Made by a program: the position numbers
In this document: one piece after another, positions 55,801 to 58,800 of the stretch
How positions within the stretch are numbered: the stretch's first letter is position 1
Layout: each line of letters opens with the position of its first letter
NCBI RefSeq assembly: GCF_001677475.2
Contig: NZ_CP015229.1
Origin: Escherichia coli
GTDB lineage: Bacteria; Pseudomonadota; Gammaproteobacteria; Enterobacterales; Enterobacteriaceae
Direction: 5' to 3' (one strand)
Length of the DNA: 64,000 nt

Positions 55801-58800
55801 AGCAGACATAAAATGTGCCCGTCAGTTAACTGTAACAAAGAATGATACACCGTCTGCTCTGTGATAACTGTTCATATAACCATTTCTTTATATTGCTGAA
55901 TTTACAAAAAGTCGCAGTTATTAGTCGTATTTATTCCGAATTGAAATCATCCGTCATATAAAATAAAAAAGAATAACAATAATAATCTTCTACCCTTATC
56001 AGTACCTTTACTGCTGTGCTCCAACACAGCAGTTTTTTTGATTATGCTCACATATTTTTCATCCCCACCGCACTGCACATTATAACTGTTGCTTTTCAAT
56101 TCAGGCTTTGTGCAGGTATGTCTGAATCTCCTCCGGGAGAGGTCTTCATCGTTATCAGCCCCAAAACACACCAGCGACACTGACAAAGAGCCTGCGAGTG
56201 CAGTTGCCCCGTTTTCGTTTTATGATGTATTCACCCAGTCAAATAATGAGCAAATTCAATCCATGTCAGACGGCAGAGAATCATAAAATTTAACCATCGT
56301 GCTTACATAAACAATCCGATAAAGACTTAACATACTTAAAATCGCATATTGCATAAGAATAAATAATAAGTCATCAAAAAACATCGGGCAAAACTACCGC
56401 AACTCCAGTTAAAAAGACAATATATTAATCCAGCGACCTCATTTATTATTCAGAAATGCTTAACAATAAGATATTTCCTGTTATTCCTTTATGGAGATCG
56501 GGTAACTGCTCCATGCCAGTCTTGTTGAATGGCTCAAAAAATAAGAGAATAATTCATAACATATATTGTAATTCAGGCTCGGTTATTTCGAATTGAATAC
56601 TTGCATTAAAATCTGATAAAAAATTCGTCATAACAACAACATTCTCTTCTGCATGTGCCATAACCTGCCGTAACAACCCGGCAGGTTTTTTTATTGAATA
56701 AATTTCCGGTTTCTTCCACCATCGCACCGGCCAGGCGACTATGAGGGGACAACGCCGCGCTCCGTTAACGCAGTAAACCCCGGTGTGTATCGTTTTTGAT
56801 TATCCCCGCACACTCGCGCAGAGGAGTCTCCCTGTCGGGCTGCGGTCTCTGTTAATACGGGAATACGGCGACAATACCGCGCATGGATAATAAGGTCGCT
56901 CAACACACTGGCTGTAATGCAGCCGATACCATGCGGCATTTAGCGGCATTCATCGTACACTCAACGGTTAGCTCTTCATTCGTGGCATTCACCTGAAAGA
57001 TCCGGGAGTGTAATTGCGTACATTTACCACTGAACGAACCTTCAACAAGAACACGACCACGCTGCAAAATACGGAACAGAATTGTTCCCTGAAAAGGCTT
57101 TACGGTTACCAGTAATTTCTTCATGCATTCTCCGGATAACAAAAATACTAGTTAATACACTGAGTGCGGATATATTCCTGCGCCCCTTCCAGCTGCTTCT
57201 GCATCATCATCAACCGCTCTCTGAGAGTGAAATAATCCCGTTCAACTGTGTCTGCCAGTCGGGGGCCGGTTGCATTATCCACGCCGGAGGTGCCGGTGGC
57301 TTCACGCACGGTACCGGAGCAGGTGGCGTTGATCCGCAGGCGCTTACGACCAGCGGCAACATCAGCACGCAGAGTTTCATTTTCAGCTCTCGCATCGGCT
57401 AATTCCCTCGAGTATCTGGCATCAAGTGCAGCGACATCACGCTGGCGTATCTGCATATCAGTAATTGTCGCGTTCGCCAGCTCCAGCTCTCTGACTTTTT
57501 TATCGCGCTGCGCTTTGTAGGTGATGGCGTTATCGCGGTAATGATTCAGCCCCAGACCAAGCGCACCACAGGCTACCAGCAGGACAATAATCACCACACA
57601 CAGAACACGGTTCATATCCCCCTCACCCCAGCATCCCCGACGAAGACAACATCATCCAGCCTAAGAGCAACCAGCATTAGTGAAAATGAAATGCCGACGA
57701 TTACACAGAGGATCTTCGCCAGCGTTATGAGCTTGTCTGACATGCTTAATCCTCTTCACGATTTCAACGCAATGACCAGTTTTGCCAGCCCATACAGCAT
57801 CGGAGACACAGCAATACCGACCGCCACCCACTTAATAGCAAAAGCCAGCGCTCTGCTGATGTCATCAGTTACAGGCGCTTTCAGTTCAAGGCCGTTTTTC
57901 ATAGTCAACCTCAACAGAATTCGTTTATACTTTTCCATGTTCTCCCTTGCCTTATCCAAGGTCAGAAACACAAAACCCCGCTTGCTGCCAACAAACGGGG
58001 TTTTACTTTTATTCACTTAGGTTTTGCCAGTTCGCAGGATTTCGTGTTATCCGTCCGCGTTGGTCAACGTCATTTTTCAGCAAAATATTCTGCTTATCTG
58101 TCGATTCCCCAGCACGCCAGCGCGCTCTCCTGGTCACGACGGGATATCTGACCGTAACAGTTGTTTGAGCGGATACGGCAGTCTCTGCCACCGTCCTTAA
58201 TCCACCAGCGAATCGCTTCACACGCTCCCCTGCGATCGCCTGCATTAATTCGTTTATAAAACGTCGACGGGAAACACTTACCGGGGCCAATGTTATACGG
58301 GCAGAATGACGCGATCCCCGCTTTCTGGGGTTCAGTCAGTGGCACTTTGATGTTTTTCGCCACCCATGCCAGCGCCTTATCACGTTCAATGGCGTTAACC
58401 CGGTCGCATTTTTCCTTTGACAGCTTCATGCCAGGAATAACAGGCTTACCATCCACCCGGGTGGCTCCACGGCAGATGGTCCAGATCCCCGCACCATCAC
58501 GGTATGCCGTGGTGTGGTTACCTTCCTTTTCATCCAGAAACTGGTCGAGGATTTCAGGCGCAGGCGCAACTGCGGCAATCAGCGCCAGAACGGCAGCCGA
58601 CAGACCGTATTTGATTTTGGTGTTCATGGATATTTATCAGGATTTATCGGTTCCGAATCCCTGGATATGTTAAGTCTTCAGCCTGCCAGTGGTGGGCACT
58701 GGTGTTTTACCTGATGGCTGAAATATATCTGACAATTCCCGTCGAGGATTTAGCAATGTATAACGATGAACATAAATATACCGCCTGCATGCAGGCCATG

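Follow-up and report, generated by a model that had tools for sequence, protein, structure and literature searches.

A prophage cargo slot of Escherichia coli that probably carries two tandem HnrS-family small RNA genes

The window analysed here, a 64,000-nucleotide stretch of Escherichia coli chromosome (RefSeq assembly GCF_001677475.2, contig NZ_CP015229.1), holds a lambdoid prophage beside ssrA (transfer-messenger RNA at 29864-30226), and the interval of this prophage from Rz to cos is a cargo, or moron, slot. Our subject is the part of the slot at 55865-57147, between a ylcI-like gene and Rz, where we consider it likely that two small RNA (sRNA) genes of the HnrS family stand in tandem, each separately promoted and terminated and each encoding an Hfq-type RNA. 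Both are predicted to be read from the strand opposite to the phage late genes, which lie on the minus strand, and would as such be expressed in the lysogen. The first RNA, a near-copy of HnrS from enterohaemorrhagic E. coli (EHEC), is expected to repress the translation of Hha, a cofactor in xenogeneic silencing, through pairing of its seed CUUCUACC with the hha ribosome-binding site (RBS) GGUAGAAG. The second appears to share the promoter architecture, 5' end, CUUCU core and Hfq-type hairpin with U7 tract, has a different sequence after the seed, and is predicted to pair with hha over the Shine-Dalgarno sequence and the AUG. These proposals draw on homology, on the anatomy of promoters and terminators, on distribution, on the boundaries of the mosaic and on predicted pairing.

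HnrS entered the literature as a set of orphan Hfq peaks. Tree et al. 2014 (PMC4104026) described EcOnc10, EcOnc11 and EcOnc12 in the Sakai prophages Sp12, Sp10 and Sp9, and in their Hfq crosslinking and analysis of cDNA (CRAC) the region ECs1786-ECs1788 ranks 15th among intergenic regions by reads. Poudyal et al. (bioRxiv 10.1101/2025.11.27.690950, a preprint) renamed EcOnc10/11/12 as HnrS, a 66-nt Hfq-associated sRNA of EHEC O157:H7 Sakai that ends at an intrinsic terminator and whose ends were mapped by differential RNA sequencing (dRNA-seq) and Term-seq. According to the same preprint, repression of hha by HnrS works through pairing at the hha RBS, as shown with compensatory mutations; HnrS also matches the 3' end of the mazF coding sequence with perfect complementarity over 15 nt, for which a functional consequence was not found; and hnrS is reported as one copy per prophage. 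The literature thus provides, for the Sakai allele only, the 66-nt length of the transcript, its binding by Hfq and its repression of hha; the Northern and CRAC data are likewise confined to that allele, and Hfq-dependent stability and expression in early stationary phase count among the traits expected of the family.

Terminator 1 (T1) is formed on the plus strand by a stem at 56010-56018 / 56025-56033 (nine pairs, five of them GC) and a T7 tract, U7 in the RNA, that runs to 56039, and by homology it is the end of an allele of hnrS (EcOnc10/11/12). The predicted sRNA of about 64 nt (allele 1, or type C; plus strand, 55976-56039, with its deduced 5' end placed to within 2 nt on either side) consists of a single-stranded 5' region that includes the hha seed, followed by T1. 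Its promoter, at 55941-55969, has a -35 element TTGAAA (55941-55946), a 17-nt spacer and a -10 element TAAAAA (55964-55969), and in alignment both the hexamers and the spacing are identical to those of Sakai hnrS. A profile made from Sakai copies only matches allele 1 with E=3.2e-23 over 55923-56039 (nhmmer), and blastn gives 84-86% identity to Sakai over 55645-56039, a segment whose Sakai homologue (84% identity) is the ECs1786-ECs1788 intergenic region. The first 20 nt of allele 1, ACAAUAAUAAUCUUCUACCC, which extend from the predicted 5' end through the seed, are identical to Sakai HnrS over the overlap of both RNAs. The sequence folds with z = -5.1, and none of 200 shuffles was as good.

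The Sakai RNA itself offers a check on this geometry: reading L005:3095-3160 from the TTGAAA-17-TAAAAA promoter to the end of the U-tract gives 66 nt, in agreement with the published length, and the RNA so defined holds CTACCCAATCAGTAC, whose reverse complement is exactly the final 15 nt of MG1655 mazF. EcOnc12 covers the T1 hairpin together with the preceding 25 nt once its coordinates are corrected by about +135 bp. Table S2 of Tree et al. 2014 gives the EcOnc positions in an older version of the genome, and we calibrated the offset on EcOnc03; an initial placement of EcOnc12 in the GC-rich element described below, made with the uncorrected coordinates, was dropped after this calibration. 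More generally, the published EcOnc coordinates are about 135 bp off the current Sakai RefSeq sequence NC_002695.2 near 1.77 Mb, and their direct use mislocates sRNAs. The first-pass annotation of this DNA had assigned T1 to ylcI, a description that needs to be widened: in Sakai, Term-seq maps the 3' end of HnrS to the orthologue of T1, and HnrS has a transcription start of its own (bioRxiv 10.1101/2025.11.27.690950).

Terminator 2 (T2), also on the plus strand, has its stem at 56662-56670 / 56679-56687 (nine pairs, six of them GC) and a U7 tract that runs to 56692. Judged by alignment, it is the end of a second, diverged hnrS-like gene, which the HnrS preprint does not mention, nor does it mention diverged hnrS alleles in general. 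The predicted sRNA of about 63 nt (allele 2, or type B; plus strand, 56630-56692) begins with AUAACAACAACAUUCUCUUCUGCAUGUGCCAUAA and closes with T2. Its promoter (56593-56622; -35 TTGAAT at 56593-56598, an 18-nt spacer, -10 TAAAAA at 56617-56622) aligns column by column with the hnrS promoter (TTAYTYCGAATTGAA ... ATAAAAA). When 175 bp ending at each terminator are aligned, the two modules have in common TTAYTYCGAATTGAA at -35, ATAAAAA at -10, CATAACAAYAAYA at the 5' end, the CUUCU core, the stem CUGCYG...CRGCAG and the T-tract; a direct repeat at 55931-55945 / 56583-56597 (93%) belongs to the same region. The segments particular to each allele are CCCUUAUCAGUACCUUU in allele 1 and CUGCAUGUGCCAUAA in allele 2. 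At the sequence level, the -35/-10 geometry predicts, for each gene, a distance of 63-64 nt from the 5' end to the end of the U7 tract, and both RNAs are predicted to have a single-stranded or largely open 5' region of about 30-32 nt followed by a GC hairpin of 9 bp and U7.

Further evidence for allele 2 comes from its position and its fold. In the whole window it is the second-best match to the Sakai-only profile (E=0.003, 13.3 bits), and the match is colinear over model positions 12-120 (109 of 122 positions). Downstream, the junction TTTTTTTATTGAA followed by the GC-rich element is shared with Sakai hnrS and is lacking at T1, so that allele 2 occupies the position orthologous to Sakai hnrS, directly upstream of that conserved element. 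The stem has changed pair by pair, one position being U-A in allele 1, U-G in Sakai and C-G in allele 2, and a second going from A-U to C-G. Allele 2 folds with z = -4.1 (0/200 shuffles as good), and it is near-identical in two unrelated phage contexts, the tandem type seen here and the enterotoxigenic E. coli (ETEC) type.

The first-pass annotation had deduced a non-coding RNA from the orphan state of T2, and it was right in kind. The RNA would not be a transcript of about 600 nt; what we find is a predicted sRNA gene of about 63 nt with its promoter 40-100 bp upstream of the terminator. An earlier model of our own, an sRNA of about 130 nt from a TTGAAT-17-AATAAT promoter at 56525-56553, was superseded by the hnrS homology.

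The distribution of the alleles was followed in E. coli genomes (5426 complete) and IMG/VR contigs. Sakai Sp9 and many Shiga toxin (Stx) phages have 55645-56039 joined directly to 56674-56884 (84-92% identity); compared with these phages, 56040-56673 is therefore inserted DNA, and 56885-57148, which carries a 74-aa gene, is a second, independent indel. The segment 56509-56890 recurs at 97-99% identity in an unrelated ETEC phage that lacks ylcI and has a different terminase; 56040-56508 is found only with the full tandem arrangement, in about 23 of the 5426 complete genomes. A pattern scan of IMG/VR yielded 37 loci of the Sakai type, 18 of type B and 13 of type C, the last always in tandem with B, which also occurs alone. 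Strains GB089 (NZ_CP013663), RM9088 and 09-00049 are examples of tandem carriers, and ETEC1748 has type B only. Among the complete E. coli genomes the Sakai type accounts for about 545 records and type B is present in about 42 of 5426 (~0.8%), its sources being cattle and beef isolates, several with strain names in the style of Shiga toxin-producing E. coli (STEC), and porcine ETEC. A pattern scan for the family beyond E. coli, in 100,044 species-representative genomes, returned only chance matches in unrelated taxa. The upstream flank of allele 1 (ylcI) and the downstream flank of allele 2 (the GC-rich element) are each shared with Sakai hnrS. Since T2 has the Sakai downstream junction and T1 the Sakai upstream flank, the tandem is best read as a recombinant, and it most likely arose by recombination between phages with different hnrS alleles.

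In one viral contig, IMGVR_UViG_2718217885_000014, positions 1-303, homology to the window begins exactly at the predicted 5' end of allele 1 (window position 55976); the DNA upstream is the start of an unrelated minus-strand gene, with the recombination junction falling on the boundary of the predicted transcript.

What the two RNAs would act on was considered by predicted pairing. The seed of allele 1 is identical to that of Sakai HnrS and pairs in silico with the MG1655 hha RBS (AGAAG); its predicted core duplex with the hha leader, of 8 bp, is the one that Sakai HnrS also forms. Predicted duplex energies at the hha RBS are -12.1 kcal/mol for Sakai, -12.1 for allele 1 and -13.5 for allele 2, with shuffle fractions of 0.016, 0.057 and 0.03, respectively. 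The predicted duplex of allele 2 is a 15-bp interrupted one that spans the hha Shine-Dalgarno sequence and the AUG; it keeps the CUUCU core, its GCAUGUG segment takes part in the extended pairing over the AUG, and the pairing differs from the validated one. The mazF match behaves otherwise, as the longest exact complement is 8 nt in allele 1 vs 15 nt in Sakai, and allele 2 has no mazF match. Repression of hha may thus plausibly be conserved and complementarity to mazF not. From these sequences we infer that either allele would be expressed in the strain studied and that allele 2 would act on hha.

Several points weigh against taking both modules as working hnrS genes. HnrS itself is known from one preprint, and no curated model can be applied to it because Rfam has no family for it. 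For T2 the homology score is modest (the 13.3 bits and E=0.003 given above), the two modules, aligned locally under stringent settings, scored no better than shuffles, and the stem covariation, counted on four sequences and without statistical power, was equalled by 130 of 500 shuffles. Both promoters are weak by consensus, with TAAAAA at -10, and were missed by a generic promoter scan that demands T at -10 position 6. The duplex energies of such short seeds only marginally beat shuffles. Finally, allele 1 of IMGVR_UViG_2718217885_000014 has no promoter, so copies can be carried passively. A generic scan for terminator-like sites found four in 4 kb, vs 3.9 expected, and hence no excess; the 63-64-nt RNAs that end at T1 and T2 nevertheless fold far better than their shuffles, as given above.

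The rival explanation that best survives these points is that T2 and about 100 bp upstream of it are a dead hnrS relic of phage-phage recombination, unexpressed or without targets, and that only allele 1, if either, is functional. The slot is indeed a recombination hotspot with many junctions, allele 2 is rare (the 42 of 5426 genomes), and its copies are about 99% identical, such that their conservation may only mirror recent spread. All the functional parts of allele 2 are nonetheless intact, from the hexamers and their spacing through the 5' end and the CUUCU core to the GC-rich hairpin of 9 bp and the U7 tract; the differences of its stem from that of HnrS are compensatory, not disruptive; and the same allele is also the only hnrS-like gene in ETEC-type phages. 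We therefore regard a relic as improbable, though it is the alternative to be taken most seriously.

A second possibility, which we hold to be rather less probable still, concerns the DNA before T2: the roughly 600 bp there could be a decayed protein-coding moron, a small-peptide gene or a long non-coding RNA, with T2 as its original terminator. The proposal has some appeal in that 56040-56300 is higher in GC (~45%) and has long open frames on both strands, and in that a consensus-like promoter, TTGAAT-17-AATAAT, lies at 56525-56553. The ORFs in question, of 65 aa (56089-56286, plus) and 79 aa (55947-56186, minus), both start with TTG and qualify the first-pass statement that the spacer has no open reading frame (ORF) of 60 aa or more: they exist, with neither homologues nor RefSeq annotation. 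A concatenated six-frame query against 5.8 billion proteins returned no spacer homologue for any open segment, with 0 of 6439 candidate proteins at E<=10; PHROG and NCBIfam gave nothing better than E ~0.1; no RefSeq gene is annotated there in 23 genomes; and the sole quasi-open minus-strand frame is broken by a 1-nt indel in ETEC-type phages. The tblastn search recovered no ylcI relic in the spacer, and the window holds no other copy of it. Folding is ordinary (z from -1.0 to +0.2), and no Rfam, PHROG or NCBIfam model matches. The decayed moron of the first-pass annotation accordingly found no supporting evidence in the six-frame protein search or the ylcI-relic search, and hnrS homology accounts for the 140 bp that end at T2. 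We treat the AT-rich spacer (~550 bp, 56040-56592 by its mosaic boundaries) as orphan non-coding DNA carried along by recombination, of which 56509-56592 is an upstream flank that travels with allele 2.

That both hairpins are mere terminators or insulators, which shield the late operon from ylcI and other plus-strand read-through and release RNAs with no regulatory role in this strain, fits two strong unidirectional plus-strand terminators facing the late genes, T1 directly 3' of ylcI, but is very unlikely given that in Sakai the orthologue of T1 is the source of an abundant Hfq-bound RNA, which has a primary 5' end of its own and a target that has been validated, and that T2 has no plus-strand gene upstream to terminate, either here or in phages of the ETEC type, which have the start of a minus-strand gene as the neighbour on that side.

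The spacer contains one further feature. Positions 56468-56490 form with 55967-55989, the 5' and seed region of allele 1, an inverted repeat of 23 nt that is 78% complementary and AT-rich. The repeat is probably due to chance; if transcribed on the plus strand, the spacer segment could pair with the allele 1 sRNA.

Beyond the two hnrS-like genes, the slot has a GC-rich element (56700-56890, minus strand), which we regard as a candidate for a structured RNA within the late transcript, in the late sense. It occurs in 398 phage records, among them Stx phages, mEp phages and Salmonella ES18, SPN3UB and S107, and its first half, corresponding to the first hairpin domain, is present in lambda (NC_001416, ~46885-46981) between bor and p78. 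A consensus structure was computed with RNAalifold from 11 diverged copies on the late-sense strand. It has 48 pairs, with 95.9% of cells paired, and 10 pairs show changes on both sides, vs 3.9+/-1.5 in column shuffles (0/500) and 2-4 when the partners are slid. The opposite strand reaches only 84.9% paired because 63 cells are G-U, and for each of the 11 sequences the late-sense fold is the more stable one. In the long stem, lambda contributes a further change, from C-G to G-C. These counts come from a structure derived from the same alignment that was used to score it, and extra phages mostly reshuffle known variants; among close relatives no covariation is seen, and diverged phages are needed. 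Single-sequence stability is unremarkable (z = +0.7), and the element corresponds to no Rfam family, being sometimes annotated as 'Rz-like spanin' or 'hypothetical protein'. A broader view, that the block is a conserved structured RNA of about 170-190 nt in the late transcripts of lambdoid phages, for instance a processing or stability element located between the genes for lysis and packaging, and that allele 2 is a distinct regulator with its own regulon, is one that we advance tentatively, as possible and short of probable.

The GC-rich element also bears on the two overlapping ORFs next to Rz, which had been taken for one frameshifted gene. ORF 56739-56939 lies mostly within the element and appears spurious: it overlaps the 3' end of the neighbouring 74-aa gene, and the rest of it belongs to the element, which is inherited independently. 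Frames in the element are not conserved, with stops in all frames in Sp9, Salmonella phage S107 and phage ev066. Only residues 20-64 of this ORF have a match, to positions 4-48 of phrog_6954, an 81-aa ORF annotated as 'Rz-like spanin' in 933W-type phages, and the window copy changes frame and has stops, so it is not an intact, frame-conserved phrog_6954 ORF. The idea of a frameshift therefore holds for ORF 56739-56939 alone, which, compared with the 81-aa ORF of 933W-type phages, has a frameshift and is truncated, and even that frame is not conserved across phages.

The other ORF is an intact gene of 74 aa (56900-57124, minus strand; RefSeq WP_000735650.1), an optional cassette directly after Rz; the ORF listing gave 56900-57142, and the RefSeq start at 57124 gives the 74 aa. 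It is gained and lost independently of the element that holds the first ORF, as its presence or absence is independent of its neighbours, and the two ORFs are not parts of one frameshifted gene. The protein matches phrog_2571 (E=4e-27) and has 60 homologues in E. coli and Salmonella, most of them 69-79 aa long, with identities as low as 53%; those at 53-67% identity keep the same length. The family has 23 invariant columns over its full length, with Cys35 invariant and Cys56 nearly so. AlphaFold predicts with confidence (pLDDT 89.6) an all-beta protein, a small beta-sandwich, for which Foldseek found nothing better than E=0.3 in the PDB and Pfam nothing significant.

The setting of these elements follows the gene order terL-Nu1-cos-ylcI-hnrS-Rz-R, with hnrS antisense to the late genes and between the lysis and packaging genes. 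On the minus strand lie the terminase large subunit (52818-54743), Nu1 (54718-55263), Rz (57148-57615 in the ORF list; 'lysis protein' in RefSeq), which forms the right-hand boundary of the slot and embeds Rz1 (57210-57395, ORF list), and the lysozyme gene (58094-58627); the cos region is at about 55300-55470. The ylcI/ynfO-like gene of 70 aa (55652-55864, plus; RefSeq 'YlcI/YnfO family protein') is opposite to the late genes, and its product passes NCBIfam NF041551 YlcI_YnfO_N (36.5 bits vs a curated cut-off of 30) and matches phrog_949 (E=2.6e-32). The ORF list and the terminator scan agree with the first-pass annotation on this gene and on the two strong plus-strand terminators after it. 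Its description of an AT-rich, ORF-poor interval of 1.3 kb applies to 55865-56692, where GC is 29% (55865-56039), 38% (56040-56508) and 35% (56509-56692) vs 52% for the whole window; the last 450 bp, with a block of 55% GC (56693-56899) and an intact gene, are neither AT-rich nor ORF-poor. The statement that no bor-like gene is present downstream of Rz was borne out, as no ORF of at least 25 aa in 55865-57147 matches a Bor-like lipoprotein in PHROG or NCBIfam, and cargo between the ylcI-like gene and Rz varies among related prophages, being a TonB-like lipoprotein, a 46-aa ORF, a KilA-N/anti-repressor gene or bor.

Elsewhere in the prophage, two small conserved minus-strand ORFs lie between the lysozyme gene and Rz, of 43 aa (57612-57743, phrog_4906) and 60 aa (57756-57938, phrog_1115); both look membrane-like and are hypothetical in RefSeq. 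Two tRNA genes (61846-61919 and 62024-62096, minus) lie in the late-regulatory region, as in many Stx-type phages.

If correct, these assignments have several consequences. The predicted hha-RBS complementarity is kept and the mazF match lost in both alleles, which agrees with the preprint authors' view of hha as the functional target, and naturally diverged alleles would provide a free evolutionary test of which HnrS pairing matters. Through HnrS, it has been proposed, prophages relieve virulence loci of silencing by Hha/H-NS. Copy-number surveys of hnrS based on identity would miss type B. Unannotated terminators in prophage cargo slots may, as here, be resolvable to sRNA genes that are outside Rfam and current annotation pipelines: the Rfam search that the first-pass annotation had called for, run at gathering thresholds on the window and by E-value on 55200-57700, placed no family in the interval and returned nothing there but chance microRNA and CRISPR direct-repeat matches. 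Within 55200-57700 the Rfam models AgvB, AsxR and Esr41 were not found, and AgvB, AsxR and the Pas sRNAs were rejected as identities for the two RNAs, as they occupy a different slot (pR') and have no sequence match; the PasB probe is unrelated. Rfam does recognise STnc100 (147.6 bits, 60238-60436, minus) in the Q-to-holin region of the same prophage, an RNA related to PasD by the Pas study. In the near-identical GB089 RefSeq genome, an 'anti-adapter protein IraM' coding sequence on the opposite strand, from about window position 60113, seems to overlap it.

The closest known relative is Sakai HnrS, with which both alleles share the slot, the promoter hexamers, the 5' end, the CUUCU(ACC) seed, the length class of 63-66 nt and the U7 terminator. 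Allele 1 is about 90% identical to it over the RNA, and differs by a change from AA to UUA after the seed, which destroys the mazF complementarity and leaves 8 nt, and by a perfect stem where that of Sakai contains a wobble. Allele 2 has 6 of the first 23 nt changed, an unrelated middle segment of 13 nt and a re-registered hairpin (AACCUGCCG / CGGCAGGUU), along with the missing mazF match. The arrangement differs as well, with two alleles in tandem in one prophage here and one copy per prophage in the preprint. In lambda and 933W-type phages the Rz-cos slot is occupied by bor, and lambda bor resembles the present cargo in its slot, its antisense orientation, its own promoter and terminator and its expression from the prophage; bor, however, encodes a lipoprotein, whereas the cargo here consists of RNA genes and ylcI with no Bor-like ORF. 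AgvB, AsxR, PasA-D and STnc100, of EHEC and enteropathogenic E. coli (EPEC), offer the broader parallel. AgvB, AsxR and the Pas sRNAs are located in the pR'/Q-S region and not between Rz and cos, yet all members of the group are short sRNAs that depend on Hfq and travel in lambdoid prophages as cargo with a promoter and a terminator, and, like the alleles described here, they form families with conserved ends and variable target-recognition parts.

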